In this document: positions 5,554 through 27,326 of the stretch, piece by piece
Numbering within the stretch: the stretch's first letter is position 1
Layout: each line of letters starts with the position of its first letter
Origin: Candidatus Thorarchaeota archaeon
GTDB lineage: Archaea; Asgardarchaeota; Thorarchaeia; Thorarchaeales; Thorarchaeaceae
Reading direction: 5' to 3'
Assembly (NCBI GenBank): GCA_003345595.1
Contig: PRDI01000072.1
Location: 1-29,411 of the forward strand
Length of the DNA: 29,411 bases
Translations under genes and position numbers: made by a program
The notes under the pieces: model-generated
Database searches by the model: none
The model's input: the letters and a program-made list of their open reading frames with translations, nothing else
Told to the model about the DNA's origin: nothing

Positions 5554-5562
5554 TTTTTAATA
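5554..5562 (+). promoter_or_regulatory. Candidate TATA box for the giant-protein operon
   Basis: TTTTTAATA about 105 bp upstream of ATG 5667, in a GC-rich context. An AGGAG SD lies at 5654-5658. Confidence 0.45.
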
Positions 5563-5666: not shown

Positions 5667-8600
5667 ATGAGAACCAAGCGAGTAGCGATACTACTGTTCT
5701 TGATGATGTCACTGACATTCGGCGGTATGTTTGCCACTCCGGCGCTGCCCGCTGAACAACAGACTCAGTCCGACACACAAGTAGTTGATCTTGGGGACGG
5801 GACAACTGTTGAAGTTGCACCTGATGAGATGCTTTATGAGTATGTCATATCCGCAGCACCCTCGGAGAAGTCCGGAACCGGCACAGCGCTGACAGTCTCT
5901 GAGTATGGCATTCGCACGGACACATTCTCTGACCGTACGATGACGTATGCGTCTGCAACTCAGACAACAACAACTGCCAACCTCTCTGTTCCTCTGGGCG
6001 ATCAGTGGCAGGGGTACAAGGTCTTCGGAAACGTGACGGACATTACAGAGAATCGCACTTGGGTTCTGAACTCAGGCTTCGGCACTGCGGCAAACTGGAC
6101 CTACAGAACTTCTCAAGTCGAGGGTTCGTTTTCGGGAAATGACAGGGTGCAGGTTTTCTCTTCCGCTGGAAGCTATCAGAGGAAGTGGGGCTCGCGTGGC
6201 ACTGGCAACGGCTTGCTAATCGATCCTTGGGGGATCGCCATCAACTCGACTGGATACGTCTACATAGCTGACACGTATAACAACCGCATTCAGATATTCA
6301 CGCGGACTGGTAGCTACGTGGCTCAGTGGGGAAGCTACGGTACTGGTCCGGGTCAGTTCGATCGTCCGATGGGTATCGCCATAAACACGACGGGATACGT
6401 GTACGTGGCGGATTTTGGAAACGACAGAGTGCAGGTGTTCAATAGCCGAGGTTTCTATCAGAGAAGCTGGGGTTCGACCGGGGACACACCTACGAATGGT
6501 GTTTTCCACGGGCCAGTGGGCGTGGCCATTCTAGATTCCAATGGTCGTGTCTATGTAGTTGATTCAGGCAACTCAAGGGTCCAGTACTTCGGATCTACCG
6601 GCACGTACGTAGGCCAATGGGCTGTTAGTGGTCTGCCGAGAGGAATTTCCATCTATCAGGCAAGCTCGTGGGTTTACGTTTCTGAAACAAGCAACAACCG
6701 AGTCCGGAGATTCGACGCTAATGGTCTCAATCCACTCACATTTCCAACTATTCTAAGTCCCGATGGAATAGCAGTTAGCTCAACCGGGTACGTGTATGTC
6801 AACAACGCGGGTAGCTCTCCGGGAACTCATCGAGTCACCCGCTACAATACCGGGGGTGGAGCTGCCTTCAATTGGGGATCGGATGGGACTGCCGACGGTC
6901 AGTTCAGAATCAACACGGGGATAGCCGTCAACGCCACTGGCTACGTGTACACCACGGAAAGTGGAGGAGAAGGCCGGCTAGCGAGCAAGTGGCTCTCCAC
7001 GGGTCACGGCACTGGAAATGGCGCTCCATCCTTCCTCATCGATGGATACTGGCATGATGCGGGCAGTGGCCTCTACGGCTACTGGTACAACCCAGGTGAC
7101 AAAGCGTTCATCCGGCAGGACTTGGCAATCCCCAGAGGTCAAGTCACGTGGCTGGGAATCTCGCTCGACTACTATGCAGACTGCCGAGGCTGGGCCAACT
7201 ACATGACGGGTTTCTTCGAGCTGTTCGTTTCTGCGGGAGACCCTGACTCCGGAGGAAGATTCCTCTGGAACCGACAGTTCGACAAAATCGCAGATGACAA
7301 CATCTGGTACTCTACCGGAATCATCCCGATTAGTCCGAGCCTATTGACCCTACCCAACGTCGCTCTGATGGCAGGACTGAGGGTAACACAGAGTGAATGG
7401 TACAGAACGAACGATATAATGCCCGAGGGCAGACTGGACAACATTATCCTCTACGTGAAGGCCAAGGCGACACCGACCAACATCAACTTGAGAATGGACG
7501 GGGTTGTCGTGAGCAACCTGATGAATGGATCTAATCCATTCTTCGGACTGGGGGTTGCCACATACTCACCCTCGGTTCCTTGGACCAGCGGATTTGCCTA
7601 CGGTAACTTTTCTTGGACGCCTACTCCGAACCCACCTGATCCAGACCTAAACATCTTGGTTGAGATCGATGTCAGGGTCACAGTATGGGCCCGGAGGTAC
7701 AATGTTCTCACTATCAACGACACGGAGAGATTCACAACCGGCGACAACTACGCGGTTCAGAATGCGACCACGGTGCGTTGGACGACAAACCATTACGTTG
7801 CGGTGCCGGGAGGATATTCGACATACTACTTCTATAACCTGTCGACACCAATCAACAGGGACATTGACTTCGTGGCGGAGCCATACCATCGTGACGTGAA
7901 CTTGACCTACGGTTGGTCCTACGGTAGACCAGGCGATGGAAGGGTCAACGTATCAGTATATAGTGTGACCACGGTGAACCAGAATGGATTCTGGCTGCTG
8001 AAAGGTTCCTCTCCAAATACGATCAGAAACCTCGAGGTGTGGAACGCTGGGGCATCGGCTTGGACCAGTACAAAGACTTTCAGAGCCAACGAGAACACTC
8101 GATTCAGAGCCAATCTATCTGACACATACGCCGGAGACACCGTATACTTCACGGTTTATGACCCAGCAGGTAATGCGTGGAGAAGTCTTCAGGCAATCGT
8201 AGATGGCTCCGGGATGGCCGTCACCGGATATGTCAGCTTTGGAGCAGCGAACTCCAGTGTCGGCGCCTGGGAAGTGCAGGCTTTCTCCGTGGATTCCACT
8301 TCGAGTGGCGGCAGTGTGAGAAATGTCGGCTACTACCGAAGAGCCTTCGCCATCAATCATTCCACAAGCGCCTTAGTGAAGTATCCTGAGGGGTCAGAAA
8401 TCACTTGGACGTACAATGCGACATTCGGCGAGCTCGTCTTCCTTCAACTCCGAGTCAATGATACTGATAATGGCGATCTCTTGCCCGGAGGTTCGATGAC
8501 GTACCTATGGGCTGCAGGCACTGGCCAAGTCAATGACATGGGGACAGGAGAGTACAGCGTTTCGCTGGACACTGGGGCGCTCTCATCGAATGGGCAGTTT

Positions 8601-11600
8601 AGCGTCAACATACAGTGGTCGAAGCAATACTACGACTCGATTGCGAGAACATTCAGCATCAATGTAATCTATACAACAGAACTCCTTTCCGCGGATGCTC
8701 CCGGAGTTGACGTTCCTCGCGGCTATGATGCTCAGCTGCACCTGAACTACAGAAACGAAGTCGGTGGTGGCATCCAGAGTGCAGTCATTATCTGCAATTG
8801 GACTATGGACAGCTATAGCGTCACCCCTGAGGTAGGGAGTCCAGGCAATTACATTCTAAGCCTCCAGACTGATGCAGTTTCACTGGCAAGCTACCGAGTG
8901 ATGATTACTGCGAAGAAGGATTTCTTCGAAACGAGGTCTATCATACTTTCAGTACAGGTGAGGGAGCTTCACACATCTGCGATACCATCCGCGAGTCTTC
9001 TCTCACTACCTGTCGGGTACACGACTTCTCTCACCATAACTTACACAGACACTGACCATGGAACTCCGATCACAGGCGCAGCAGGAGCAATCCGATGCAA
9101 CTGGTCAGAGAAACACACTACTGGTGATCAGAACTACACGGTGACCGAAACAGCAACACCGGGAGTCTATCAGGTCACATTGATATCAAAGGATCTCGAT
9201 GTCCTGCGGACCTACTCTGTTGTCTTCAATGTCCAGGCATATGGTTCCCAAAACCACACGTTCACAGTCACCGTTGTCCTCAGAACACATCTCACTTCGT
9301 TCTATTTCGTAAACCCAATCAGCCCGACTCCCTACACCGGTCACATTCAGATCTATGTGTCATACTTCGATTTCGACACCGGCACAGGCATCGAGAATGG
9401 CTCCTATGTGGGATACAACGTCAGAATGAGAGCAACCACGGCGGGACTGCCAGGGCTCATGTTCACTGTCACGAATGGGACCGTTCCCGGTGAGTACATC
9501 ATCTCCATCTCCGCTGACCAGTGGGGTTCTGTGGGGACCAAGTATCTGACATTCTATGCGAACTGGACTGGTCCGACTGTGAAGTACTTCAATCGGACAC
9601 TCTACACAGACACAGGTGTCATCATAACCGCATCACCGACTGACATATTCATTGGCCAGAGCCCTGTCATCACTCCATATGGCGAGAACATCAGCTTCTC
9701 AGTAGTATACTATGACACTGCCGAACCGATTGGAATCGTCAACGGAACCGGACCTTTCGCCGGCAACGTCAGAATCTTTGTTGCCGTAGTGACATCTGGC
9801 CAGACTCTCAATCAGAACCTAATGGAGATCAGTGAGATTGACTTCTTGACACGGCCGGGTGAATACAGGATTGAGTTTAGCAGTCAGTACCTCACTGGTA
9901 TCATCGGCTGTGAGCTTAGGATATGGCTGAACTGGACTGCGGGAGAGCTTCCGTACTATGGTAACCAATCGCTATTCGTGACAGTCTATACAACATATCG
10001 TCTTACAACGGTAGATTGGACCCCACTGCCAATTACGGCATTTGATGAACTGGTGGATCTCACATTTGTCTACAGAGATGTCATCACAGGAGATCCAATC
10101 CTGAACTCCAGCAAGCTCACGGTTAGCGTCCAAGAGAGCATCTCCTATGACGTGTTCTATGACGGTGACCTGACCGGCATGTTCAGAGTCCGAGTCAACA
10201 CTGCCTCTTGGACTCCTGGCTCACGAACGTTCCACCTCAACGTCGTGTGGTCAGGAAGTCCGTTCTATCAGAATCGAACATTGATCTCCATTCCAGTAAC
10301 GGTTAGATACAGGTACACAGACCTTACTCATGGAGCCTACGCACCCGTCCAGTATGGCAACAACCTAACTATCGTCTTCAGCTATCGTGACCTCGATGAT
10401 ATCGTTACTACTGGCATAGACGGTGCTACGCTCAGGCTCGACTCATGGCTTGCAGGCTATTACAATGTGTTCGACAACCATGATGGCACCTACACACTGG
10501 TCTTGATCACTTCATCATTTCCATCGCCTGGATTATTCGTTGTCAATGCATCAATCACGTATAATGGACTCAGATACTGTGACAATGCGTCAGACTTCTT
10601 CTACTTGACACTCACTCAGAGGAATACCCAGCTCACGAGCGAACTGCCAGAACTCGCACCATATCTGACTCAAGCGAACATCACGGTAAGATACATTGAT
10701 GACAGTACAGGAGTTGGTATCGTTAGCGCCGACGTGTTTGCAGGCTGCTCAACATCTTCAGAACAACTTCAGAAAGGTGTGAACTACTGGGTCGATGATT
10801 TGACAAATGGATACTACCGGGTTAGAGTTTCGACGATCGCGCTTGGCGGCTTTGGGCTGTACTCGGTAGCAGTCACAGCAAATTGGACTGGGGCTCCGTT
10901 CTACTTTGAGCGCGTCAGAAGCGTGAACATCGAGGTGTCAAGAAGACCTGCCGGCTTGACCGTGTCAAGGTCTCCTCTTAACACGCCGTTCCTAGAGAAC
11001 ATTGTGTTTGAGGTGTCTGTTACGGACACATTGGATGGATCGCCGATTGTACTCACGAAGGCAGTCCTTATTCTGACTCATGGATCCGGCACGCTGATCA
11101 GCCCATCGGAGTACGTGCTTTCTGGCTCTGCCGGGTTATACACTATTTCCTTCAACTCGACCCTCATAACATCAGTGCTGGTCAACGAACACCCAATCAG
11201 CATCAAGCTATTCTGGGGCGACACAACGCCGTACTACTCGAATGCCACGGCCGTCACCGAAGCCAGTGTCACCGCACGATCTACTCAGGCAAGTGTGATA
11301 TCTACACCTCCGGCTTACTACTACTTCAACATTAGCGCCATTGTCAAGTACAGCGACTATCTCACGAGTGCGCCTATCTCGGGTGCCACGCTGACGTTCA
11401 GATGCCTCAATGCTTCAGTACAGCATAGCTGGTGGTTTGACAGGGGAGACGGCACCTACCAAATCCTCGTCAACAGCACGGACCTCCCATCCCTCGGAAA
11501 GTACTTCTTCACCGCCAACTTCACATGGACCGGCCAACCATTCTTCAACAATATTAGTGGTATTGTCTTCAGTGTCGTTGTGAATCCCGTTTCGACCGTG

Positions 11601-14333
11601 TTGACCTTTGAGATGCCCATTGGTGTAACGCATTACATGGGCGAAACCATTGTTGCGAATGTGACATTCCGCGATATCGCAACAGGCAGCGGGGTGTCTG
11701 GCGCAAATGTTCAAACCAACTGGAAGACACTGTTCGGCACGGACTATACTCTGGTAGAGATAGGCAAAGGCCTCTGGAATCTCACGATTCAAACCAGCGG
11801 ACTCAATGCAGGTATATACTCATTCAGCATAAACGCTTCTAAGTATCTGCACCAAAACAGGACTGTCACTGCTGACCTTGTGCTTGCGTCTATGCCTGTG
11901 GACATAGCCCTGATTGCTACACCGACTTCGCCCAGTTGGGGAGATACTGTGCAGATTAGGGTAAATGTCACCGCTTCTAGGACTGGTGACCCCATCACTG
12001 GCGCATCTGTCAACCTCACAATCTCGCCTGACCTATACCTCATGACAGACTTGGGGAATGGAACGTACCGATGTACTGTTCCCACAGTGCTCTATAGTGC
12101 CGGCGAGTATACGATGAGCGTGACATTTGCTCTCGTGAACTACGAAACCCGTGAGCAGGGCTTCCAAATCAGGGTGAGCAAAGTACCTGCAACTCTCGCA
12201 GGTGTCATTGACCTGATTACTCCAGTCAATGGTCAACTGGTGACTGTCGAAGCCCAATACCGGATCGAATCCAATAGCACGTCTATAACCACGGGCCATG
12301 TCACGTACAGCTGGACAGGTGGTTCTGGCCTGTTGGTCTGGCAGCCTGCCCAATCGCGATATGTGACTCAGTTCATAGTGACTGATGTGCTCGTAGGGAG
12401 CTACCAGCTCTTAGTACTGGCGTCTTCAGATAACTACAGAACTGTCAGCGTCCAACTCACACTTACCGTGCTTGAGGTAAGGACAGAACTCCTGGCCTAC
12501 GAAGGTCAGACTGTCCTCTCTGCTATTTCAGGCAACTCCTTCAACATCACTGTCTATCTCAATAACACAGATCTGTCTCTGCCGGTGTCTGGCGCATTGC
12601 TGACCTACGGGTTTGGAGAAGGGATTGGCAACCTGACAGACAATGGCGGTGGGTACTATACGGCACTTGTGTCAACTGGGACTTTGGAGATACGTGACTG
12701 GGTACTGACAGTCTCCAGCTCCAAGGCCGGATTCTCGCCCTCCTCAGTTCAGTTCAGGATAGCAATCCTCAAGATACCGACCAGGGTGATTGTAGGGACA
12801 AGTGCTGCCCAAGAGGGCTTCTACGGGAGAAATGTGACATATCTGTTCACGTTTTGGGACTCACACAACAACGTTTCTATACCTAACGCGACTGCCACAT
12901 TTGCCTTGGAGTCAGTCGGAGGTCAGCTTGTTGACCTTCGGAACGGAAGCTACTCTCTTGAGATAGACACGACCTGGGTGAGCGCAGGCGCAGCAAGTCG
13001 AGACATCTCTGTCTTCTTCTCCCGGTCCCGATATGACTATGCATATGCTGCTGTCAAGCTAGTCGTAAGGCCAATCCCCACTGAAGTCTTGGGCTTTGCA
13101 GAAGTATCAGTGCCCGTTGGCGACGACTACAGTCATCTCTTCATCTTCAATGACACTCTGAACAATGCACTCATCGCGGGTGCCACGGCCTCGGCAGTCA
13201 GCCCCGACTTCGGCCTAAAGACTATGACGGATCTGGGTAACGGGTCATATAGACTCGGTCCTGCTGAAACAGGCATTTCACGCCTTGAAGTGAGAACCGA
13301 GCCCTACACAATCCGAATCCAGCTGTCAAAGGGCAATTTCAGCCTCGGGGAGATAGTGTTCCATCTCACAATAAGGAGAATTGCCACAGAGATCAGAGCT
13401 GTGGCTCCGCCTAACACCGTGTACACAAGACAAGTGTTCACTGTGTTGTTCACCTTCTGGGACACAGACCATAACGTCTTGATACCAGGTGCTCTCAATA
13501 CCACCCCCGGTAGCACAGTGGTAGTTGTCAGCAGTGAGAACATCAACTTCGGAGATGGCAGGTATCAACTGGGTTTCATGGCTCCACAAGTCGGGGTCTT
13601 CTATCTGATAATACACCTTGACAAGACTGACTATGAAACAGGTGTGTACAGCGCAGTTGTCTATGCCTTGATGTCGGAAGAGCAACAGGCCCTAGTCAAC
13701 GCTTTCACATATGGGGCGCTCGCTCTGATTCTTGCCGCTGTCTTCGGAGCATTCTACGTGAGAGTCCTCTCCGTACCGAAGATGCTGAGATGGATCAGAT
13801 CTATGATATCTAAGCTCAGCAAGGGAAGAATTCCCAAGCCTGCTCCAGTCAAGAACAGGAGACAGATGTTGCTGGATTTGGTCAACACTGAGTTGGCCCC
13901 GGTTCATATCATAAAGACAGTTGACGATATCTCAATCTCAACTGTGGACGTTGCGGCGCTAGATGTCGAGAAGCTCCTCACAGAACTGGCTACAGTCGTA
14001 GGACTCACAGAGAAGGACATCGACACGCTTCGGCAAGACCTTGAAAAGATGAGACCCAGTGAGAGGGCCGGCTTCATCGGCGAGGTTCTGAAGCAGGAGA
14101 GAGCAAGAAGAGCCCGTGAACTCGTTGAAGCAGAGAAAGCCGCAGAGCCGGGCAAGGCGGTAGAGCGTCTGGCAAGGAAGCTGACAGAGGAGGAACTGAC
14201 GGATTTGCGTGAGCGACTCATCAAGATGGGCATACAGGAGAGCGAAGCAGACCTGATGGTAGAGCAAGCTCGGAGCCTCACGAAGGCAGAGGTGGATGCT
14301 CTGCTCGATCAAATCGGAGGTGACAAGCCGTGA
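5667..14333 (+). CDS. Giant type-I membrane surface glycoprotein A: signal peptide, jelly-roll/CBM-like head with inserted 6-blade NHL propeller, MG-like domain, 17 Ig-like repeats, TM helix, 190-aa helical cytoplasmic tail
   Basis: 2888-aa open frame with signal peptide MRTKR + hydrophobic stretch. NHL repeats (GIAINxTGYVYxAD..NxRxQxF) and about 100-aa beta-rich repeats with D-x-G-x-G-x-Y motifs. TM helix AFTYGALALILAAVFGAFYV (13701-13760) is followed by basic residues. About 60 N-x-S/T sequons by manual count. Confidence 0.9.
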   Translation: MRTKRVAILLFLMMSLTFGGMFATPALPAEQQTQSDTQVVDLGDGTTVEVAPDEMLYEYVISAAPSEKSGTGTALTVSEYGIRTDTFSDRTMTYASATQTTTTANLSVPLGDQWQGYKVFGNVTDITENRTWVLNSGFGTAANWTYRTSQVEGSFSGNDRVQVFSSAGSYQRKWGSRGTGNGLLIDPWGIAINSTGYVYIADTYNNRIQIFTRTGSYVAQWGSYGTGPGQFDRPMGIAINTTGYVYVADFGNDRVQVFNSRGFYQRSWGSTGDTPTNGVFHGPVGVAILDSNGRVYVVDSGNSRVQYFGSTGTYVGQWAVSGLPRGISIYQASSWVYVSETSNNRVRRFDANGLNPLTFPTILSPDGIAVSSTGYVYVNNAGSSPGTHRVTRYNTGGGAAFNWGSDGTADGQFRINTGIAVNATGYVYTTESGGEGRLASKWLSTGHGTGNGAPSFLIDGYWHDAGSGLYGYWYNPGDKAFIRQDLAIPRGQVTWLGISLDYYADCRGWANYMTGFFELFVSAGDPDSGGRFLWNRQFDKIADDNIWYSTGIIPISPSLLTLPNVALMAGLRVTQSEWYRTNDIMPEGRLDNIILYVKAKATPTNINLRMDGVVVSNLMNGSNPFFGLGVATYSPSVPWTSGFAYGNFSWTPTPNPPDPDLNILVEIDVRVTVWARRYNVLTINDTERFTTGDNYAVQNATTVRWTTNHYVAVPGGYSTYYFYNLSTPINRDIDFVAEPYHRDVNLTYGWSYGRPGDGRVNVSVYSVTTVNQNGFWLLKGSSPNTIRNLEVWNAGASAWTSTKTFRANENTRFRANLSDTYAGDTVYFTVYDPAGNAWRSLQAIVDGSGMAVTGYVSFGAANSSVGAWEVQAFSVDSTSSGGSVRNVGYYRRAFAINHSTSALVKYPEGSEITWTYNATFGELVFLQLRVNDTDNGDLLPGGSMTYLWAAGTGQVNDMGTGEYSVSLDTGALSSNGQFSVNIQWSKQYYDSIARTFSINVIYTTELLSADAPGVDVPRGYDAQLHLNYRNEVGGGIQSAVIICNWTMDSYSVTPEVGSPGNYILSLQTDAVSLASYRVMITAKKDFFETRSIILSVQVRELHTSAIPSASLLSLPVGYTTSLTITYTDTDHGTPITGAAGAIRCNWSEKHTTGDQNYTVTETATPGVYQVTLISKDLDVLRTYSVVFNVQAYGSQNHTFTVTVVLRTHLTSFYFVNPISPTPYTGHIQIYVSYFDFDTGTGIENGSYVGYNVRMRATTAGLPGLMFTVTNGTVPGEYIISISADQWGSVGTKYLTFYANWTGPTVKYFNRTLYTDTGVIITASPTDIFIGQSPVITPYGENISFSVVYYDTAEPIGIVNGTGPFAGNVRIFVAVVTSGQTLNQNLMEISEIDFLTRPGEYRIEFSSQYLTGIIGCELRIWLNWTAGELPYYGNQSLFVTVYTTYRLTTVDWTPLPITAFDELVDLTFVYRDVITGDPILNSSKLTVSVQESISYDVFYDGDLTGMFRVRVNTASWTPGSRTFHLNVVWSGSPFYQNRTLISIPVTVRYRYTDLTHGAYAPVQYGNNLTIVFSYRDLDDIVTTGIDGATLRLDSWLAGYYNVFDNHDGTYTLVLITSSFPSPGLFVVNASITYNGLRYCDNASDFFYLTLTQRNTQLTSELPELAPYLTQANITVRYIDDSTGVGIVSADVFAGCSTSSEQLQKGVNYWVDDLTNGYYRVRVSTIALGGFGLYSVAVTANWTGAPFYFERVRSVNIEVSRRPAGLTVSRSPLNTPFLENIVFEVSVTDTLDGSPIVLTKAVLILTHGSGTLISPSEYVLSGSAGLYTISFNSTLITSVLVNEHPISIKLFWGDTTPYYSNATAVTEASVTARSTQASVISTPPAYYYFNISAIVKYSDYLTSAPISGATLTFRCLNASVQHSWWFDRGDGTYQILVNSTDLPSLGKYFFTANFTWTGQPFFNNISGIVFSVVVNPVSTVLTFEMPIGVTHYMGETIVANVTFRDIATGSGVSGANVQTNWKTLFGTDYTLVEIGKGLWNLTIQTSGLNAGIYSFSINASKYLHQNRTVTADLVLASMPVDIALIATPTSPSWGDTVQIRVNVTASRTGDPITGASVNLTISPDLYLMTDLGNGTYRCTVPTVLYSAGEYTMSVTFALVNYETREQGFQIRVSKVPATLAGVIDLITPVNGQLVTVEAQYRIESNSTSITTGHVTYSWTGGSGLLVWQPAQSRYVTQFIVTDVLVGSYQLLVLASSDNYRTVSVQLTLTVLEVRTELLAYEGQTVLSAISGNSFNITVYLNNTDLSLPVSGALLTYGFGEGIGNLTDNGGGYYTALVSTGTLEIRDWVLTVSSSKAGFSPSSVQFRIAILKIPTRVIVGTSAAQEGFYGRNVTYLFTFWDSHNNVSIPNATATFALESVGGQLVDLRNGSYSLEIDTTWVSAGAASRDISVFFSRSRYDYAYAAVKLVVRPIPTEVLGFAEVSVPVGDDYSHLFIFNDTLNNALIAGATASAVSPDFGLKTMTDLGNGSYRLGPAETGISRLEVRTEPYTIRIQLSKGNFSLGEIVFHLTIRRIATEIRAVAPPNTVYTRQVFTVLFTFWDTDHNVLIPGALNTTPGSTVVVVSSENINFGDGRYQLGFMAPQVGVFYLIIHLDKTDYETGVYSAVVYALMSEEQQALVNAFTYGALALILAAVFGAFYVRVLSVPKMLRWIRSMISKLSKGRIPKPAPVKNRRQMLLDLVNTELAPVHIIKTVDDISISTVDVAALDVEKLLTELATVVGLTEKDIDTLRQDLEKMRPSERAGFIGEVLKQERARRARELVEAEKAAEPGKAVERLARKLTEEELTDLRERLIKMGIQESEADLMVEQARSLTKAEVDALLDQIGGDKP
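6135..6974 (+). repeat. NHL-repeat beta-propeller (5 full blades plus 2 half blades) inside protein A
   Basis: Repeats of PxGIAxxxxGxVYVxDxxNxRVQxF...WGxxG. Nucleotide similarity between blades is still visible (6135-6158 vs 6417-6440, 21/24 identical). Confidence 0.9.
8358..13676 (+). repeat. 17 tandem Ig-like beta-sandwich repeats (protein A stalk)
   Basis: Manually delineated about 95-125-aa units with consensus T-x-L...G-x-N-x-T...Y-x-D...I-x-GA...D-x-G-x-G-x-Y...G-x-Y...K/W-xx-Y. The Ig fold is inferred. Confidence 0.75.
14316..14333 (+). promoter_or_regulatory. Shine-Dalgarno and GTGA start/stop overlap coupling genes A and B
   Basis: GGAGGTGA at 14316-14323 lies 6 nt before GTG 14330. 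The TGA stop of A is at 14331-14333. Confidence 0.8.
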
Positions 14334-17300
14334 ATCATACCAGAAGAATAGTCCCGCTCATCTTCCTTGCTATCGTCCTCTTAGTCCCCGTCCTCTCACC
14401 TACCGTGCTTGGCAGCTACTCGTTAGCCCAGACCACCGGCAGCCCCCAGAACAACGACGGGTCACAGACTGTTGACCTAGGCAGCGGGAACACCGTTCGT
14501 CTGGACGAAGGAGAAGAGCTACACAGGTTTGTGTTAACAGATCAAGGATGGACTGAGTGGACTGGTGTGTCATCCCCCCTGACTGGTGGGGAATTCGGCA
14601 ACAGCTCCAATATCTTCGCTGGCCTCGCAATGAAGTACCTGACGACTAACGTCACAACAGGCACTACTGCGAGCATTCCCACTGGGACCGGATGGCAAGC
14701 GTACAGCACAAGTGCATCGGTTACCAGTCTGTCAGAGAACAGGACATGGACACAAAACCCCGACTTCAAGACGGCACCCAGTTCCTCTGATTGGACACTG
14801 GGTGTGACAAATGTGGCTGGCTCAAGCACTCCAACATCAGTATACAACGCAACAGGCCACGGTACAGGGAATGGTGCGATAGACCTTGAGGTCGACTCAA
14901 CATCGGGAAGTGCACCCTATTACTATGACGCAGGTGACCTGGCATGGGCAAGGCAGACCATGACAATCCCGAGAGGGACTGTCGTCTGGGCTGGATTGAC
15001 TCTGGACTACTGGGCGGACACAAGAGACGACACTCACTACGGCATGACAGGATCGTTCTCAATATATGTGATTGTGGAGGGCACGACTATCTGGGAAACC
15101 GTCTTCGACGAGATTGATGCCGAGGAGACTTGGTACAATAGCGGTATGAGCTTTGTTCCAACGTCAGTGTTCAATCTACCCACCGACCAAGCCGTCGCTA
15201 TAGAGGTTGGGCTCTGGAGCAAGCAGTCTGTGGGCTACACTCCCGATATCGGGCCGCGAGCCAAGCTTGACAACATTGAGCTCTACGTCAAGACCAGAGC
15301 TACTCCAACGAACGTCAACCTAAAGATGAATGGCGTCACAGTTGCAAGCGGCACAGGCTACGGCAGTGGCACTGTCATTCAGAATCCTGCTACACCATGG
15401 ACCAGTAATCCTGTGAAGCTAAACTTCACGTGGACACCGACACCAGTCAACCCTGTCCCGAACAGGACAATAGCTGTAGAGTTTGACGTCAACGTGAACA
15501 TGTTTGCTCGACGACTAAACACACTCACCGTCTATGACATCAATCCGCTGGCATATGGTGAGAGGTTCACTATACAGAATGGATCGAATGCGAACTATAT
15601 CACCTACTTCTATGCCGATATTCCTTCAGGCTACCCGAACAGATACTTCTTCAATGAGTCGTTACCACTGAACAGGGATGTCTATTTTGTTGGGAAGCCG
15701 CTGGCACCTTCAACCAACCTCACCACAGGTTGGACTGGAGGACAGGTGGGCAGCGGATATCTCAACGTGTCCACCTATCAGGTAGCGACAGAGGCCGGCA
15801 GGTACGGCTACTGGCGTATGCAAAGCAGCTCAACCAACATGATCACTGATCTCACGATGTACGACCCCGGCGACAGCAACTGGAAGAGAACTGTCAATCT
15901 TAGAGCTGGAGACAGCTCCAGGATCCGTGCTTTCGTTGGTGCATCATACACAGGATCCATTGCCAACATCACCGTGTTCAGTCCTGAAGGCGAGAAGTGG
16001 TACAGCGTCAACGCCACAGCCGATGGCTCGGGCTATGCCACAACGCCCTTCTTGACATTCGCTGGCTCCAACGCAAGCGCCGGGTCGTGGATGATCCAAG
16101 CAGCGACCAACAACGTGGGGACGAGCGGCAAATGGACCTCAACAGGTTTCTTCAGGAGAGCATTCACAATTACTCACTCTTCTGAGCTCTTGCTAGAGTA
16201 CCCAACAGACGCAGTCGGAACATGGACAACAAACGTAACTTACGGAAGCCTGTTGCTCATCATCATGAAGGCCAATGACACAGACAGTTCGGTGCTTGTT
16301 GCCGGCGGCGAACTAACACTCAACTGGGCTCCAGGCAGCGACACCTTCGACGACAGCGGCAACGGACAATACACAAAGGTCGTCGACACATCGTTGCTCA
16401 ACGGTGCTGGACGTTACGCCATGACGCTTCAGTGGACCGCATCCAGCTATGACAATGCAAATGCGGTCCTGTACATAAACGTGAATTACGCCGCCACTCT
16501 CGAATCTCCTCAATATCCAGGAGTATCTGGACCAGTTGGGAGCGTCGGTATCTTCACCGTCAACTTCAGGAACGTGAATGGCACTGGAATCACTAACGGC
16601 GTGATAGCCTGCAACTGGTCTTCATCCTATACAGTCACGAATCTTGGTCTTGGGTCCTACAGGATTACTGTCAACACAATCGGCATTGCGCTCGACGAGT
16701 ACCCTGTGAATGTCACTGCCTTGGCGCCGTTTGTCAACCCTCAGACCATGCTGATGTTCGTAGAGGTCAGAGAGGTCTACAATACTGTCGCCTACACTGC
16801 AAACCAGCTCTCGATACCTGTGGGAGAGTCTGCGTCTTTCAATGTGACATGGAGAGACACTGACAACAATGTGCCCGTAACCGGATGGAGCAGTGCAATC
16901 TCCTGCAACTGGACATCTCTACATAGCAGCGGCGAACAGAACTTCACAGTGACCGAGCCATCACCCGGTATCTACGAAGTTACTGTCTTCACGGAGTCAG
17001 ATGATCCACTGACAGTAGGCGGCAAGTTCTATAGAGTAGTCTTCAATGTGGCACGCTATCACTATCAGAACCACACTTTCACAATCGATGTGGAGATACG
17101 CAGCCATAACACACTCTTCATGCTGGACGAGCCAATTGAACAGACACCCTACAACTTCAATATCGTTGCCCTCGTGCTCTTTGAGGACACAGACCTTGCT
17201 GTAGGCATTGACAACACAAGCGGATACGTACATATCGCAGTGACCTCACCCGGTCTGAGTCAGCTGAAGTTCGCTATCACCGGCTCGACGTTCGGCACAG

Positions 17301-20300
17301 GTCACTACAACATCACGATTGCCAGCAATCAGTGGGGCTCGGCAGGCTGGAAGAACCTGACCATCAGTGTCAGCTGGACTGGCGGAGTTGCCAAGTACTT
17401 CGGCAAGACAATCAACACGTCTGTCAGAGTACTGGGGACGGACACCGACCTATACCTCGAGGTCGCTCCCACTGCAACCTACTACCTGAACAACCTTACC
17501 TTCACATTGGTCTATTGGGATGTTGTCAACTCAACCAGAATATCCAACTCCACGGGCAATGTGATCTTGGCGATAGTGCCGATTACTGGAGGACATCCGG
17601 TGACACAGAACCAGTTCAATGTGAAAGAGTCGATCTCGACTCCAGGGACGTATGGCTTCAAACTCAACAGCTCACTGTTCCAGAAGTGCGGCACCTTCTT
17701 CTTCAGACTAGACTTCATGTGGAAGAGTGGTGCCCCGCCGTTGTATGAGAACGGGACCATGGAGGTCACATTAATCGTCTTAGAACAGCCAACCTATGCT
17801 GACCTCAGTCCCGTGCAGAGCACTGCATTTGGCGAGATAGCAGTTCTGAACTTCACGTTCGTCGATTCCCTACGAACATCGAGAATCCAGAACAGCAGCC
17901 AGTTGACAGTCCGCCTTAATGAGGGAAGTGCCTCGTACACCAAGACTTATGACTCGCTTACTCGCACTTTCTCGATACTCATCAATACTACAAGCTTGGG
18001 CGGAGTTGGGTCCTTCACCCTCCATCTGAATCTTACCTGGACCGGACAGCCATTCTATGCGGCTGTCACCAGCAAGGATTTCACAGTGATAGTTATCCTC
18101 AGGAGCACTCAGCTGACCCACCTGTCATTCTTGCCGCCTCAGTATGGGAGCAGCGCAAGCATCGAGTTCATCTACACCGACCTAGTTGCAGGCTCCTCCG
18201 CAGGTATGACTGGAACCCTTGTTTTGAACGCAACTCTTGCCGGGCATTACAGCGTTACATCGCTTGGAAACGGCCACTATCGGGTCACACTTGACACCTC
18301 GGCATTCGCATCAGACGGCCGATTCACAATCAATGCCACGATTGTATACACTGGAAGTAGGTTCGCAAGCAATGCGGCCGAGTTCTTCAGCATGACCGTA
18401 CTGAGACGCCTCACTCAGCTGGGTTACCAGAGCCCGGACCCAACTGCTTACCTTGAGAACGTCAGCTTCACTGTGACATACTCTGACGACAGTACTGGAC
18501 TAGGTATTTCGGGCGCAACAGTTTCACTGAGCTGTTCAAACTCCTCTGAGAGCCTCTTACTCAACGTGAACTACTGGATAATCTACCTAGGCTCCGGGAA
18601 GTACCAGATACTTGTCAATGCTTCATCGCTCGGGGTACCAGCATCCTACGTTCTCAATGTGACTACATCCAGAACAGGGACACCGTTCTACATGCCAGCA
18701 AGCAGAAACGTGAACTCAATAGTTACGCAGCGAGCAACTCAGATACTCATCACTCAGACGCCAAGTGACACCCCATTCAGAGAGAATGTGACCTTCAGGT
18801 TCAGGTTCTTTGACTACATTTCTGGCTCTGCCATAGCTATCAACAAGAACCAGATCACGCTGATGCACGGAAGTTCCAGTGAGATTTATGCATCGAACTA
18901 CTCACTGACGAACTATGGCACCTACTACGAGATCAGCTTCAACTCAACGGTGTTGGACTCAGTGCAACTAGTCACCAGCCGCCAGATCACTCTGTCCATT
19001 GATGCGAGCGCGGGTGTGCCCTACTACGCATCAAGAACATCCACGACGTACGTCACCACCATACAGAGGCCAACCCAGATTCTCTTCCCTCTAGTTCAGG
19101 AAACGGCCTTTGCGGACAACATGACACTGCTCTTCGACTACATTGACTACATCTCAGGTGAGGGCATAGAGGGAGCGGATGTAGCTCTGGCAAGCACCAA
19201 CCTGACAACACCAGTGTTCTATATGGTAGAGCTGGGTGATGGCTCATATGAGGTTCTTGTCCCTAGCCAACAGTTTGGCTCACTCGGAACGGTCTACTTC
19301 ACACTCACAGTGAACAAGACAGGTATACCGCACCACTATGCAGATAGGACTGCGGCAAACGTGCCTGCCGCGATACGGGCAATCCTGACTACTCTTCAGG
19401 CGGACGTCCCCGCTGCTGGAACCCGTCCCATAGGAGACCCATTTGTCGTCAACGTGACTCTATCGGACTTCGACCACAGCATTCGAGTGAGTGGAGCAAC
19501 CATCACTTGTGACTGGACAGCGCGGTATGGCAAAACAGCAACGATACAAGAGATTGGCAGCGGCGTCTATAGGATAACGCTCAACACGACAGGCCTAGTC
19601 GCACAACCCTACCTGTTCACGGTCCAAGCTCAGAAGACCTTCTACCAGATATCCAACATCAGTGTTGTGGCACAGCCAGGGTCGTCGGCGGTGCAGATCT
19701 CGCTTGATAGCTCGACCTACTATGCTGACTGGGGAGAGGAGGTCACGATTAGGATGACTGTGAGAGAAACATACTACTTCTCTCTTGTTCCTGGAATGAA
19801 TGCGACCCTTTTGTGGAACGGCTCAGTCTATCAGTTCTCCGACCTAGGCAATGGCACTTACGTTCTCATGCTGGAAACAGGGAATGCTGACTATGGATAC
19901 CACGAACCCAAGGTTTCAGTTTCCAGGACGTACTACCAGACCCGTGAGCAAACCTTCGGTCTAGTCGTGTCGAGAGCCGCCGGTCAAATACTGGTCTCGA
20001 GAGCAGCGGGCGAAACATTGCCAGGCATGTCTGCCTATGATGTCGTGCTGGGCACCTCTGGCACATTCATCGTCTATCTCAATGACACGACAAATGGCCA
20101 ACCTGTCATAGCTGACAATGCCACGATTGACTGGAATAACCAAGTGTATTCTCTGGTATACAACGGGACTCCAGGTTTCTACTTGGCGAACGTGGATGTA
20201 ACCGGACTCGCTATAGGGCAGTACGAAGCTGTCATGCGCGCATTCGAAACGAACCACGTATTCCTTGACTATGTTCACTATATCAATGTGGTACCAGTGC

Positions 20301-22132
20301 CGACAACGCTGCAGCTCGTTGGCGGCGCCCTGTCGGTCACTGTCATCTATGGCAACATGTTGGACGTCGTTGTGCAGTACAACGACACGTACTTCGGAGG
20401 CACGGTTGGCGGAGCTAACGTTTCCTTCGTATTGGCCGGCGTAACTGGACTACTTCAGGGACAGCCGGACGGCACGTACAGAGCACTGATCAACACGAGC
20501 TCATTGGCAGCTGAAAGCATCTATCTGCGAGTCTTCGCTTCAAAAGCGGGCTACGCGGCCACACAAAGGACATTCATAGCCAATGTCCTACCCCGACCCA
20601 CCGGAGCTACAATCAACATTCCGACGAGGGATGGATACTATGGTGACAACGTGTCATTCCTAGTTTACTTCAACGATACGTTGCGCAACACACCTATTTC
20701 GGGCGCAACAGCTTCCACGCACTGGGAGGGAGGAGTAGCCAATGTCATAGACTTGGGCAATGGCTCCTATCTCATTGAGGTGAAACTATCTCTAACGACC
20801 CCACGACTGTACGATTTCAGCATCGCGCTTGGAAAGAGCAACTACGAGTTCGCGCAGATTGAAGCGTATCTTGTCATCAAGCCAACACCTGCTGAGATAC
20901 AGGGGTTGACGACGCTTTCGGTACCAGTCAATGATACAGTATCTGTTGTATTCAATGTACTGAATGCTCTCAGCAGCCAATTCGTGACAGGCCTCAATGG
21001 TGCATCCTACTGGACTGGCGTGGGTACGTTTCCATTGCAGACAATGGCAAACGGTAGCTATTCAATGCAGATACCTGGCACGCTTCCGATCGGCGTGTAC
21101 GAGATTGATGTAGCCTTCGCTACTTCGGTCTATCAGATAGTCCCTCTCAGATTCAGCCTGAACGTGAGGACAGTGCTGACTGAGCTCCGAACACCGGATA
21201 CCACGTTAAGCACAGTTCCGGGTGCGACCATTATTGTGCCATTCAACTACATCGACCTGGACCACCATGTTGGCATCAGCGGAGTGACGCCGCTAGTCAC
21301 GATTGGCACAGGAAATGCGACATACTACCCACAGCTGACCAGCGAACCCAGCAACAACGGTAGCTACCTTCTGTACTTCACTGTGAATCGGGGTGGCACA
21401 TTCTACGTCACGGTCCAGTTCGCAAGAGGGCAATACGGCACTCAGACTATCCTCCTGACCATTCTATCTGACATATCTGGAGAGGAGGCGTTCCTCCAGA
21501 ATGTGAGGATCGTAGGAGGATCAGCCTTCATTCTTCTGGCGCTATTGGTCGTCGTCTATGTAAAGGTCCTAAGTGTACCCAAACAGATTCGCAGCATGAA
21601 CAGGATGATTAAAGATCTGAGGCGCGGCAAGATACCCAAACCGCCGTCTGCTCCTTCTAGGGCAGAAACTGTGTTGGACATCGTGAACAGCAATGTGAGC
21701 GATGTAAAGGTCTGGAAGGTTCTTGAGGACATTGCACCAGAGCCCATCTTGGTGGTGATACCCGAGGTCAACGAGCTCTTGGAGAAGTTGGCCAAGATAA
21801 CGGGGCTTGGAACACAGGAAGTCGAGGCCTTCAGAACAGACTTGGCACGGATGAAGCCTAGTGAGAGACCAGGCTTTCTCCGGGAGGTTATTGCTCAAGA
21901 AGAGGCGCGACGTGCCGAAGCCTTAGCGGCCGCGCCGGGCGTCAAGCCGCCGGAGAAAGTCGAGAAGGAAGTCCTAGGCACAAAGCCGACCGAACTAGAG
22001 GAACTTAGAGCCAAGCTTCAGAAGAAGGGCATGGCTCCTGAGGAAGTCGAACTCATCGTCGAGCAAGCCAAGACGCTATCTAAGGCAGACCTTCAGGCTT
22101 TGCTGGATAGCCTTGGCATTGAACTACGATAG
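14330..22132 (+). CDS. Giant type-I membrane surface glycoprotein B, full-length paralog of A lacking the NHL propeller
   Basis: 2600 aa with a signal peptide. Colinear motifs with A include ENRTW, TGHGTGNGA, LDNIxLYVK, RRAFxI and YVxVLSVPK. It has 17 Ig-like repeats, TM IVGGSAFILLALLVVVYV (21509-21562) and a 189-aa tail. Confidence 0.9.
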   Translation: MNHTRRIVPLIFLAIVLLVPVLSPTVLGSYSLAQTTGSPQNNDGSQTVDLGSGNTVRLDEGEELHRFVLTDQGWTEWTGVSSPLTGGEFGNSSNIFAGLAMKYLTTNVTTGTTASIPTGTGWQAYSTSASVTSLSENRTWTQNPDFKTAPSSSDWTLGVTNVAGSSTPTSVYNATGHGTGNGAIDLEVDSTSGSAPYYYDAGDLAWARQTMTIPRGTVVWAGLTLDYWADTRDDTHYGMTGSFSIYVIVEGTTIWETVFDEIDAEETWYNSGMSFVPTSVFNLPTDQAVAIEVGLWSKQSVGYTPDIGPRAKLDNIELYVKTRATPTNVNLKMNGVTVASGTGYGSGTVIQNPATPWTSNPVKLNFTWTPTPVNPVPNRTIAVEFDVNVNMFARRLNTLTVYDINPLAYGERFTIQNGSNANYITYFYADIPSGYPNRYFFNESLPLNRDVYFVGKPLAPSTNLTTGWTGGQVGSGYLNVSTYQVATEAGRYGYWRMQSSSTNMITDLTMYDPGDSNWKRTVNLRAGDSSRIRAFVGASYTGSIANITVFSPEGEKWYSVNATADGSGYATTPFLTFAGSNASAGSWMIQAATNNVGTSGKWTSTGFFRRAFTITHSSELLLEYPTDAVGTWTTNVTYGSLLLIIMKANDTDSSVLVAGGELTLNWAPGSDTFDDSGNGQYTKVVDTSLLNGAGRYAMTLQWTASSYDNANAVLYINVNYAATLESPQYPGVSGPVGSVGIFTVNFRNVNGTGITNGVIACNWSSSYTVTNLGLGSYRITVNTIGIALDEYPVNVTALAPFVNPQTMLMFVEVREVYNTVAYTANQLSIPVGESASFNVTWRDTDNNVPVTGWSSAISCNWTSLHSSGEQNFTVTEPSPGIYEVTVFTESDDPLTVGGKFYRVVFNVARYHYQNHTFTIDVEIRSHNTLFMLDEPIEQTPYNFNIVALVLFEDTDLAVGIDNTSGYVHIAVTSPGLSQLKFAITGSTFGTGHYNITIASNQWGSAGWKNLTISVSWTGGVAKYFGKTINTSVRVLGTDTDLYLEVAPTATYYLNNLTFTLVYWDVVNSTRISNSTGNVILAIVPITGGHPVTQNQFNVKESISTPGTYGFKLNSSLFQKCGTFFFRLDFMWKSGAPPLYENGTMEVTLIVLEQPTYADLSPVQSTAFGEIAVLNFTFVDSLRTSRIQNSSQLTVRLNEGSASYTKTYDSLTRTFSILINTTSLGGVGSFTLHLNLTWTGQPFYAAVTSKDFTVIVILRSTQLTHLSFLPPQYGSSASIEFIYTDLVAGSSAGMTGTLVLNATLAGHYSVTSLGNGHYRVTLDTSAFASDGRFTINATIVYTGSRFASNAAEFFSMTVLRRLTQLGYQSPDPTAYLENVSFTVTYSDDSTGLGISGATVSLSCSNSSESLLLNVNYWIIYLGSGKYQILVNASSLGVPASYVLNVTTSRTGTPFYMPASRNVNSIVTQRATQILITQTPSDTPFRENVTFRFRFFDYISGSAIAINKNQITLMHGSSSEIYASNYSLTNYGTYYEISFNSTVLDSVQLVTSRQITLSIDASAGVPYYASRTSTTYVTTIQRPTQILFPLVQETAFADNMTLLFDYIDYISGEGIEGADVALASTNLTTPVFYMVELGDGSYEVLVPSQQFGSLGTVYFTLTVNKTGIPHHYADRTAANVPAAIRAILTTLQADVPAAGTRPIGDPFVVNVTLSDFDHSIRVSGATITCDWTARYGKTATIQEIGSGVYRITLNTTGLVAQPYLFTVQAQKTFYQISNISVVAQPGSSAVQISLDSSTYYADWGEEVTIRMTVRETYYFSLVPGMNATLLWNGSVYQFSDLGNGTYVLMLETGNADYGYHEPKVSVSRTYYQTREQTFGLVVSRAAGQILVSRAAGETLPGMSAYDVVLGTSGTFIVYLNDTTNGQPVIADNATIDWNNQVYSLVYNGTPGFYLANVDVTGLAIGQYEAVMRAFETNHVFLDYVHYINVVPVPTTLQLVGGALSVTVIYGNMLDVVVQYNDTYFGGTVGGANVSFVLAGVTGLLQGQPDGTYRALINTSSLAAESIYLRVFASKAGYAATQRTFIANVLPRPTGATINIPTRDGYYGDNVSFLVYFNDTLRNTPISGATASTHWEGGVANVIDLGNGSYLIEVKLSLTTPRLYDFSIALGKSNYEFAQIEAYLVIKPTPAEIQGLTTLSVPVNDTVSVVFNVLNALSSQFVTGLNGASYWTGVGTFPLQTMANGSYSMQIPGTLPIGVYEIDVAFATSVYQIVPLRFSLNVRTVLTELRTPDTTLSTVPGATIIVPFNYIDLDHHVGISGVTPLVTIGTGNATYYPQLTSEPSNNGSYLLYFTVNRGGTFYVTVQFARGQYGTQTILLTILSDISGEEAFLQNVRIVGGSAFILLALLVVVYVKVLSVPKQIRSMNRMIKDLRRGKIPKPPSAPSRAETVLDIVNSNVSDVKVWKVLEDIAPEPILVVIPEVNELLEKLAKITGLGTQEVEAFRTDLARMKPSERPGFLREVIAQEEARRAEALAAAPGVKPPEKVEKEVLGTKPTELEELRAKLQKKGMAPEEVELIVEQAKTLSKADLQALLDSLGIELR
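16175..21476 (+). repeat. 17 tandem Ig-like beta-sandwich repeats (protein B stalk)
   Basis: Same repeat consensus as in A. By eye, repeat n of B matches repeat n of A. Confidence 0.75.
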
Positions 22133-22162: not shown

Positions 22163-23197
22163 CTAGGGCTCACGCTTCCCGTAGGTCTTCTCAACCTCTT
22201 TGAGTATGTCGGAATGGGTTTCGAAATACTTCCTGGCCGGCTCCAGCATTTCAACCAAAGCTGATATAACCGACTGCTTCACATCATCGGGATGGAGCTT
22301 ATTCTCGGCGTAGGCCTTCTCGAACTCACGTGCCGATGTGAACTCGGCATCGCCTCCAAACTTCTCTTTCCGACGAACGGTGAACTTGCCGTATCTTGGG
22401 AGAAGGATTAGGCTCACTGTGGAAGCGATGGCGTTCTGCTCCAGCACGCCGGCAGGACAGTAGGCTTTGGTTATTGCCGTCTTGATCATCTCGGGGCTGT
22501 CGGTCACTCTGATATGTGACAGGGGGTCGCTTGCGGACATCTTGGATCCCCCACCCTTCAGTGAGGGAAGCAGAGGCATGAAGATGTAGATTCCTTTCTG
22601 AAAGTCGAGTTCCTCAAGAAACTCGCGCCCGAGCATGTAGATGTTCCTCTGATCTCTGCCGCCCACAGTGACATCTGCTTGGAGGTACTTGACATCAAGG
22701 ATCTGCAGTATGGGGTACAAGAGTTCTGACACCTTTGGCTCGTCTTTCATCCTCACGACTTCGCTCGCTGCGCGAGTTGCCCTTGTCGTTGTCACCATTG
22801 CTGAGAGCTTGTAGACATCCTCGATGTATTCTCGCTTAGCTTGGTAGCTCGAACCTCTGACGAACTTCATCTTCTTGGCGTATGGTCCCAAGACAGCTTT
22901 CATGCACTCCTCGTAGTAGGTTGAGCGCACGTCCATCAGCTCAAACGAAGTCTTTTGACTATCCAAGTGGGCGTGATAATCAGCCACCAGAATTGTGCCC
23001 TTTCCGCCGAGGTTCGTGAGATCAATCAGCTTGTTCAGAGGAATCATATATGCAAAGTGGAAGGGTCCGGTTGGAGCAGTCCCGTAGTAGAAGTTGAAGC
23101 TCGGTTTCGCAAGGACTGCCTTCAGTTCATCTGGCGTTACGATTTCTTCGCTGTTGTTCGCGGCCTTGTTGAACCGCTGTTCATCTGGCCCACTCAT
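22163..23197 (-). CDS. tyrS: Tyrosine--tRNA ligase (archaeal/eukaryotic type)
   Basis: YYGTAPTGPFHFAY (HIGH-equivalent), ADYHAHLD, LLYPILQILD, GGRDQR, KMSAS, AYCP and LHPDDVK. ATG 23197 is preferred over GTG 23206 because that GTG lies inside the GGTGA SD 5 nt upstream of the ATG. Confidence 0.96.
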   Translation of the reverse strand: MSGPDEQRFNKAANNSEEIVTPDELKAVLAKPSFNFYYGTAPTGPFHFAYMIPLNKLIDLTNLGGKGTILVADYHAHLDSQKTSFELMDVRSTYYEECMKAVLGPYAKKMKFVRGSSYQAKREYIEDVYKLSAMVTTTRATRAASEVVRMKDEPKVSELLYPILQILDVKYLQADVTVGGRDQRNIYMLGREFLEELDFQKGIYIFMPLLPSLKGGGSKMSASDPLSHIRVTDSPEMIKTAITKAYCPAGVLEQNAIASTVSLILLPRYGKFTVRRKEKFGGDAEFTSAREFEKAYAENKLHPDDVKQSVISALVEMLEPARKYFETHSDILKEVEKTYGKREP

Positions 23198-23286
23198 TGT
23201 CGTCACCTTTTTGGTGAGCTACCAGGCTCTTGATGGAAAACAGCCGAGGCCCGGCCTCACCAGCGCAGGGCAACTCCATTCTTGTT

Positions 23287-24327: not shown

Positions 24328-24995
24328 TAGACAAGCCTCCTAGCCCTCTGCCAAATCATTGTTGGAGCCTGCCATAGCACGAATGAGCAATGGCCGGTTA
24401 TCTGTGTCCTTCCGCGCCTAAGAGCTTCGTAGACATCATCGACGGTCTCGATGTCTTGAAACCAGGTCTTTGCATGTCCGAGTTCAAGGAAGGAGTGCGC
24501 GTCGCTTCCCGCAGTCATGGGTTTTCCAAGGCGTTTTGCCAGACGTTTCGCCCAAGTGTTGAAGAGGTTGATGGCGCACCTTGAGTTGATGCCTTCCACA
24601 AGATCGATGTGACGTACAATTAGAGACTCTGGCAAATGCCTCCTGACTGCTGACTCCCTTCTGAACAAGTCCCTAGGGTGGGGCAACACCGCAATAGCGT
24701 TCTGGTCTCTGATGTTTTCGGCGATCTCAGCGAAGGACTGCTTGGGTATCGGCTCGGTGACGAATAACCCGATAATCTCTCCATAGTCCGTTGACATAAA
24801 CTCGCAGCTATTGATAAGGAAACGACCATCATGCACGACAGGTCGAAGAAAGGATGGAGCCTTGTGTTCAGTGATTGCCATTCCTGTCAGTTCTCTTCGC
24901 TTCATCCACTTGAACACAGACTTGGGGTTCATGAGCCCGTCTTTGGAGTGGATTGTGTGAGTGTGAAGGTCAAATGCGGAGAGCCGGTCGTTCAA
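24324..24995 (-). CDS. PHP-domain metal-dependent phosphoesterase
   Basis: DLHTHTIHSKDG, AITEH, E, PHP, EGIN and GSDAH motifs. Confidence 0.9.
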   Translation of the reverse strand: MNDRLSAFDLHTHTIHSKDGLMNPKSVFKWMKRRELTGMAITEHKAPSFLRPVVHDGRFLINSCEFMSTDYGEIIGLFVTEPIPKQSFAEIAENIRDQNAIAVLPHPRDLFRRESAVRRHLPESLIVRHIDLVEGINSRCAINLFNTWAKRLAKRLGKPMTAGSDAHSFLELGHAKTWFQDIETVDDVYEALRRGRTQITGHCSFVLWQAPTMIWQRARRLVY

Positions 24996-25004
24996 TGTTC
25001 ACAC

Positions 25005-25982: not shown

Positions 25983-25997
25983 TCAATCCTCATTCTG

Positions 25998-27325: not shown

Positions 27326-27326
27326 A

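Follow-up and report, generated by a model that had tools for sequence, protein, structure and literature searches.

Do two giant surface proteins that are encoded by overlapping genes also work as one unit? This question is raised by two long reading frames, here called A and B, that occupy positions 5667-22132 of contig PRDI01000072.1 (assembly GCA_003345595.1, Candidatus Thorarchaeota archaeon); the window, i.e., the whole stretch of DNA that was analyzed, comprises 29,411 nucleotides. The original prediction, made from the letters of the window, described A and B as two giant surface proteins, coupled and colinear, with equal numbers of domains, and took the frozen register of their repeats as a sign of in-register 1:1 co-assembly. 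The description was borne out, and pairs were found to duplicate or move as pairs as well; the deduction turned out to be weaker than stated, for reasons given below. The answer that we favor, with about even confidence, is that A and B are inherited and translated jointly, serve at the cell surface as giant, glycosylated receptors or adhesins of type-I topology, and carry out their function together, probably in association with each other.

Gene A (5667-14333, + strand) encodes a protein of 2888 amino acids (aa) with a signal peptide, a head carrying an NHL insert, a macroglobulin (MG)-like domain, 17 immunoglobulin (Ig)-like units, a transmembrane (TM) helix, and a tail, and gene B (14330-22132, + strand; 2600 aa) encodes the same series with a head that lacks the insert. 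At the coupling junction (14316-14333, + strand), the sequence GGAGGTGA (14316-23) contains a GGAGG motif (14316-20) located 9 nt upstream of the GTG start codon of B (14330-32), and this codon overlaps the TGA stop codon of A (14331-33) in the tetranucleotide GTGA; the reading frames, the Shine-Dalgarno motif, and the overlap lie where the original prediction had placed them. BLASTP aligned A and B as colinear paralogs with 35% identity over 2493 columns, extending from A430/B160 to both C-terminal ends, and the motifs CNWSEKHTTGDQNYTVTE and CNWTSLHSSGEQNFTVTE, along with DDSTGVGI and DDSTGLGI ... VNYW, were present and aligned in the two proteins, in agreement with the colinear yet divergent paralogy that had been proposed. 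The additional 288 residues of A correspond to the NHL β-propeller, which occurs in A only. The overlap is not a general habit of this genome (2.73 Mb in 129 contigs, 83% complete) because the other tandem giant paralog pairs that it contains (C127:586-12295 and C25:12308-26123) are spaced ∼500 nt apart, with no overlap and with different tails. A and B would be made from one mRNA, with B translated by termination-reinitiation at the RTGA overlap, a mode that would yield near-equal amounts of the two proteins.

The arrangement extends well beyond the window. A locus scan that used one genome per species returned 67 loci, and A was directly upstream of B at all 33 that were informative (24 complete pairs, seven with a partial A, one with a frameshifted A, and CP070658.1, read across a split assembly). 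Of the 24 species with complete pairs, 22 had an RTGA overlap at the junction and two had TAATG, and GGAGG was present in all 24. Many more genomes, including the single genome searched from the second family of the order, displayed two same-strand tail matches 7.7 kb apart; the pair is near-universal in the family of the window, usually with one pair per genome. Approximately 65 orthologs of B were 43 to 87% identical, the full-length ones being mostly 2557 to 2626 aa, and the orthologs of A were 48 to 65% identical. All relatives of A and B came from metagenome-assembled genomes (MAGs) of Thorarchaeota, as the earlier guess of an Asgard-like archaeon would have it. Orthologs occurring singly or with unequal repeat numbers, which the original prediction had named as findings that would speak against it, did not appear: neither gene stood alone at any of the 33 loci, and the repeat number never differed.

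A and B formed two reciprocally monophyletic clades with largely mirrored topologies, which indicates that the duplication predates the radiation and that the two genes have travelled together since. The genome K_3_bin.28 (G002, contig C22) possesses two full tandem pairs in the order A'-B'-A-B with the same ATGA junction (L092:3-14305 and L012:2184-17698). A' is 54% identical to A and B' is 48% identical to B; in the A tree and in the B tree alike, the additional gene groups with one and the same foreign clade, so the extra pair was duplicated or acquired as a pair. As a separate observation, B' and B differ hardly at all over the last ∼100 residues of the tail, although they are 48% identical overall; this pattern is suggestive of local gene conversion there. 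In a long-read MAG (916-kb contig, L001:1347-10004), A is split into four frames of 1407, 915, 283, and 297 aa next to an intact B; this could be due to sequencing indels or to decay of A. CP070658.1 (the 'bin8 chromosome') was considered as a counter-example with a truncated B and no A, and was rejected after the C terminus of A followed by the N terminus of B was located at 0.80-0.81 Mb. The locus is split there between 0.81 Mb and 1.66 Mb (L093, 800000-815000; L026), and the 300 N bases and chimeric frames beside one of the sites point to an assembly artifact; the chromosome was probably mis-scaffolded at the long, internally similar A-B locus.

The stalks of the two proteins correspond unit by unit. 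A repeat hidden Markov model (HMM), along with AlphaFold2 (AF2) models of B residues 1-1200 (predicted local distance difference test, pLDDT, 83.7) and 1401-2600 (pLDDT 82.2) that had alignments of 42 and 47 sequences (B orthologs plus A paralogs) as input, resolved 17 units of ∼105 aa in each protein. The B stalk (16175-21478, + strand; residues 616-2383) was delimited by the HMM and the AF2 models, and the A stalk (8358-13712, + strand; residues 898-2682) by the HMM, boundaries mapped from B, and the unit matrix. Units 1 to 17 of A measure 105, 98, 107, 115, 123, 104, 103, 108, 111, 102, 100, 100, 98, 99, 96, 109, and 107 residues and those of B measure 105, 95, 110, 111, 117, 105, 102, 108, 112, 103, 100, 100, 107, 99, 93, 103, and 110 residues, with matched units differing by 0 to 9 residues. 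In an all-against-all Smith-Waterman comparison, the best match was the equally numbered unit of B for 14 of the 17 units of A (diagonal mean ∼150, off-diagonal mean 47), and units within one protein were barely alike (mean score ∼45). The 17 repeats in each protein and their n-to-n correspondence are as originally claimed, and the stalk lengths given were exact (1799 residues from His898 to Tyr2697 in A and 1794 from His616 to Tyr2410 in B); for the tails, 191 and 190 aa were counted where 190 and 189 aa had been reported. Across species the stalks of A measured 2241 ± 12 residues and those of B 2220 ± 8. The length of each segment of A and B was kept within a few residues across the 24 species, and the TM, juxtamembrane, and module-1 segments were identical in length throughout. 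Identity between A and B drops to 18-29% in the membrane-proximal units. Single Ig units of B matched the S-layer protein SbsC (Z 9.6) and adhesin-extender domains when aligned with VIA-align, and a Foldseek search of B1-1200 against the PDB returned generic Ig arrays alone (titin, DSCAM, alpha-2-macroglobulins, and S-layer proteins including SbsB and EA1), so it was uninformative.

The heads of the two proteins differ. The AF2 models of B are all-β up to residue 2380 and include a β-sandwich jelly roll (14738-15295, + strand; residues 137-322; pLDDT ∼90) that resembles carbohydrate-binding modules (CBMs) and MAM domains. VIA-align matched this domain with Z of 10-12 and a root-mean-square deviation (rmsd) of ∼3 Å over 130-170 residues to CBM4/16/22/27/36/61, alginate- and hyaluronan-binding modules, and MAM domains, so that by structural alignment of the model the B head has the β-sandwich jelly roll of the CBM superfamily. 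Atlas leads for the same head to CBM_4_9 were weak (score 0.81), and a Pfam search of A and B matched no CBM family. The A head, which is of the CBM/MAM-like jelly-roll type as well, contains the NHL β-propeller insert (6144-6956, + strand; residues ∼160-430; Pfam NHL, E 1.8e-22). This form of A (∼2890 aa) was found in 8 of 24 species (the window, L003, L014, L015, L021, L025, L029, and L034), whereas A in the other 16 lacks the insert and measures ∼2590-2620 aa; B never carries it. The NHL form is patchy over the A tree, and this scatter implies that the insert was gained or lost several times. Between head and stalk, residues 502-615 of B (15833-16174, + strand) aligned with an MG domain of human alpha-2-macroglobulin (Z 9.9, rmsd 2.2 Å over 93 residues). 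The single MG-like domain of the original prediction is thereby supported by its fold; the Pfam MG2 match to it (E 0.0037) was below the cut-off.

A hydropathy scan identified an N-terminal hydrophobic signal and a single TM helix near the C terminus of each protein. The helix of A spans residues ∼2675-2697 (13689-13757, + strand) and that of B residues 2384-2414 in the AF2 model (21479-21571, + strand). We also observed a conserved twin arginine in the signal region of B (residues 1-28, 14330-14413), where the consensus is MKxxRRL. The ectodomains contain 64 (A) and 67 (B) N-X-S/T sequons compared to ∼30 ± 4.7 in shuffled sequences, and the tails contain 0 and 1, respectively. This two-fold excess, confined to the ectodomain, fits an outside that is glycosylated and a tail that is cytoplasmic; we infer that A and B are N-glycosylated.

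The A tail (13758-14330, + strand; 191 aa) is composed of a juxtamembrane helix and two three-helix modules, as deduced from the tail alignment and the AF2 model of the B counterpart, and the B tail (21572-22129, + strand; ∼186-190 aa) of juxtamembrane helices and two three-helix modules, as seen in the AF2 model and the tail alignment. No part of either protein is more conserved than the tail, and within it module 1 stands out with 71-72% mean pairwise identity, the highest of all segments. The tail gave noise alone in Pfam at E values up to 10, its profile reached a best E of 0.13 against PDB sequences, and an Atlas feature search returned no usable match. Judged by these searches, the tail is a new cytoplasmic domain that matches no known family. 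Among 1.84 billion proteins, the tail profile matched 141 cluster representatives, always at the C terminus, and these representatives are giants of 2000-5500 aa. In a survey that covered 301 genomes of the phylum, 72 of the 76 genomes from the window's family encoded the tail, as did the single genome of the sister family and, with weaker E-values, 18 of the 19 from one other Asgard family; the ∼205 genomes searched from 27 other families yielded no match. The B tails of L003 (17201-17878) and L014 have an extra acidic, proline-rich stretch of ∼36 aa between modules 1 and 2 and measure 224-227 aa compared to the usual 186-190 aa.

A and B have been passed on and duplicated jointly, are translated as one unit, and match in architecture; on these grounds we consider that the two proteins would most likely act together as a heteromeric unit. 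They may reach out as long surface receptors or adhesins from an envelope that would have no S-layer, and a fully extended stalk would span tens of nm; the rod of 60-80 nm in the original prediction is likewise a tentative estimate. The heads may bind glycans, particles, or partner cells, and the tails may dock a cytoplasmic partner.

Several observations weigh against joint action. The 16.5 kb of A-B DNA contain no repeats beyond two short matches at chance level, and since the units are also barely alike, gain or loss of repeats by recombination has no substrate here; selection for matched length is thus not required to explain why the repeat number is stable. The original prediction had proposed checking whether repeat counts co-vary among related genomes. 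The raw correlation of stalk lengths (r 0.66) fell to r 0.28 (p 0.08) with independent contrasts, which gave r 0.23 (p 0.13) for the Ig part alone, so that small length changes are uncorrelated after phylogenetic correction; we rejected length co-variation as support for A:B pairing. The A stalk exceeds the B stalk by anything from 2 to 35 residues. Two more giants with the same tail stand alone in the source genome (C39:29350-40980, 3876 aa; C102:1-10116, at least 3371 aa), which indicates that the tail-bearing family does not intrinsically need a paralogous partner. Identity between A and B of the same species equaled that between species in almost all segments. The same-species value was higher in the MG and juxtamembrane segments (z ∼3.5), a weak signal that traces to a few clade-level events and could equally reflect the adaptation of both tails to one shared partner; gene conversion between A and B was rejected, and the signal is not counted as a sign of contact. 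Operon coupling, finally, is common for the subunits of complexes and also for proteins that are merely co-regulated.

The step from a frozen register to in-register co-assembly is thus less secure than the original prediction had it, given the lack of DNA repeats, the diverged units, the uncorrelated length changes, and the solitary tailed paralogs. A strict 1:1 A:B rod in register is a tentative and rather doubtful proposal. Complex prediction with the last Ig unit, TM helix, and tail of each protein (24-row alignment each) scored 0.01 compared to a mark of 0.32, a value that speaks neither for nor against binding. We regard it as unlikely that A and B constitute an obligate 1:1 heterodimeric receptor for adhesion and signaling, a functional analog of the paired type-I receptors of eukaryotes, in which the lectin-like heads would sense partner cells or glycans at a distance of tens of nanometers from the membrane while the three-helix tails would relay the contact to cytoplasmic regulators.

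A possible, though less probable, alternative to a jointly acting pair is that A and B are co-regulated and physically independent adhesins or receptors, each a monomer or homo-oligomer, whose equal architecture was inherited from a whole-gene duplication. On this view the old paralogs would have been kept adjacent in one operon since the cell needs both head specificities at once, that of A with its NHL propeller in some lineages and that of B, which has none. The absence of DNA repeats and the high divergence of the units would explain the stable repeat number with no matching between chains, and the uncorrelated length changes and the solitary paralogs with the same tail agree with independent proteins. 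So do the differing heads, with an NHL insert that comes and goes in A only, and the low identity of the membrane-proximal units, which makes the stalks now quite different. Independence accounts less well for the junction, where the (mostly 4-nt) overlap and the GGAGG recur from pair to pair compared to the ∼500 nt between the other tandem giant paralogs, or for the absence of any loss of either gene at the 33 loci. It also does not account for a duplicated pair that remained a pair, or for tails of one kind and TM and juxtamembrane lengths that agree to the residue in both proteins. The solitary tailed giants, which occur in Thorarchaeota and one other Asgard family (for example C39 and C102, and P0070-P0077 with DUF2341/LamG), resemble A and B in the shared tail, the C-terminal anchor, and the Ig-rich ectodomain, with 26-28% identity over the stalk; they differ in their lengths and heads, in being unpaired, and, for some, in having three to four copies of tail module 2. 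The tandem repetition of this module, three to four times, was observed in the C102 protein and in the metagenomic fragments P0172 and P0175.

We consider it improbable that the principal cell coat of Thorarchaeota is made of A and B as its two subunits, with a canopy or loose lattice of membrane-anchored glycoproteins in place of discrete receptor dimers. The near-universal occurrence of the pair in the family, usually once per genome, would suit a coat, as would the strong enrichment of sequons in the ectodomain and the resemblance of single Ig units to the S-layer domains noted above (SbsC by VIA-align; SbsB and EA1 by Foldseek). Two-gene S-layers with adjacent genes exist as well, as in SlaA/SlaB of Sulfolobus. 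For Asgard archaea the nature of the envelope is still undecided, S-layers being uncertain in these archaea and no lattice being known (bioRxiv 10.1101/2024.05.28.596244). The cultured Asgard 'Ca. L. ossiferum' possesses numerous complex surface proteins and no ordered S-layer (PMC9834061), and the more than 20 other frames over 1000 aa in the source genome, many of them ending in a membrane anchor, fit a mixed 'surface protein forest' of that kind rather than a coat. The 17 Ig-like domains and lectin-like head are also far longer than the S-layer anchors known, and the conserved 190-aa tail is at odds with the typical archaeal S-layer protein, which ends at or just after its anchor. The notion that the long frames are artifacts or decaying genes, to which the four-frame A of L001 and the fragmented locus of a 'complete' MAG might point, can be set aside almost entirely, given that 24 species, the one of the window included, have both frames unbroken, with 44-87% protein identity and conserved lengths per domain, that the AF2 models are confident, and that the 300 N bases and chimeric frames beside the split locus point to an assembly artifact.

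The remaining features of the window add context to the pair, which probably acts together. A possible archaeal TATA-like box, TTTTTAATA (5554-5562, + strand), lies ∼105 nt upstream of the ATG of A; this is a low-confidence reading of the letters. Downstream of B, the opposite strand (22163-28217, - strand) encodes tyrosyl-tRNA synthetase, an LPG_synthase_TM-like membrane protein, PHP, UbiA prenyltransferase, DUF362, and metallophosphatase, and this gene order is kept in distant Thorarchaeota (L001-L003). A link of these neighbors to the glycosylation of the giant proteins is conceivable.

The 'complex surface proteins' of the imaged cultured Asgard are thought to mediate the cell-cell contacts that are central to models of eukaryogenesis, and the A-B locus is a concrete, family-wide candidate for such a surface structure in Thorarchaeota. 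If the two chains do pair and the tail does dock an intracellular partner, they would represent an archaeal outside-in receptor and a direct handle for the enrichment, labeling, and identification by electron cryotomography of Thorarchaeota cells. If they do not pair, A and B still define a new surface-protein family with a new cytoplasmic domain.

How, then, do A and B compare with known systems? No described family was matched by sequence, with Pfam yielding NHL alone and MG2 below the cut-off, and full-text literature searches turned up no description of the A-B family. The integrin α/β receptors are comparable by analogy only, as two type-I proteins that might pair and that have cytoplasmic tails and an asymmetric head to which one chain contributes a propeller. 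Pfam identified no von Willebrand factor A (VWA)/β-I domain, FG-GAP propeller, or integrin-type family in A or B, the propeller of A is, unlike that of integrin, an NHL insert that most A orthologs lack, and A is a paralog of B, whereas integrin α and β are not related in this way. For teneurins, the TEN_NHL match (E 7.6e-4) reached 19 bits compared to a cut-off of 27.1, with no YD shell or other teneurin family in Pfam; for the alpha-2-macroglobulin/C3 family, the likeness stops at the MG fold, as the sub-threshold MG2 match was accompanied in Pfam by no thioester domain, bait region, MG1-8 array, or other family of this group. A and B share with secreted, N-glycosylated, membrane-anchored S-layer glycoproteins a signal peptide, a TM helix, and an ectodomain excess of sequons, glycosylation being predicted from the latter. 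SlaA and SlaB of Sulfolobales are likewise glycosylated envelope proteins with adjacent, co-expressed genes, and S-layer proteins often contain Ig-like domains; SlaA and SlaB are mutually unrelated and SlaB alone is anchored, whereas A and B are both anchored paralogs with long tails.

The receptor protein tyrosine phosphatase mu (MAM-Ig-FN3; 2v5y and 2c9a) resembles A and B, as do other MAM-headed type-I receptors, in having a jelly-roll head, an Ig-like stalk, one TM helix, and a folded cytoplasmic part. Its MAM domain matched the B head with Z of 10.5 to 10.9 at 10-12% identity, which is a resemblance of fold and layout only; A and B have no phosphatase or other known cytoplasmic domain and their stalk is far longer. 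In the giant Ig-repeat adhesins of bacteria, as in A and B, a tandem Ig-like β-sandwich extender holds a ligand-binding head far from the cell. The tetra-repeat extender of an ice-binding adhesin (6xi3) aligned with B502-1036 with Z 9.4 and an rmsd of 30 Å, so that the domains match and their rigid arrangement does not. Each bacterial adhesin consists of one protein, in which near-identical repeats recombine and vary in number, and is exported by type 1 secretion and held in the outer membrane, whereas A and B are two coupled paralogs that have a constant set of 17 fully diverged units and end in a TM helix and a conserved cytoplasmic tail. The layout of A and B is therefore that of known giant Ig-repeat surface proteins, and the obligately linked pair of paralogs and their cytoplasmic domain are new.

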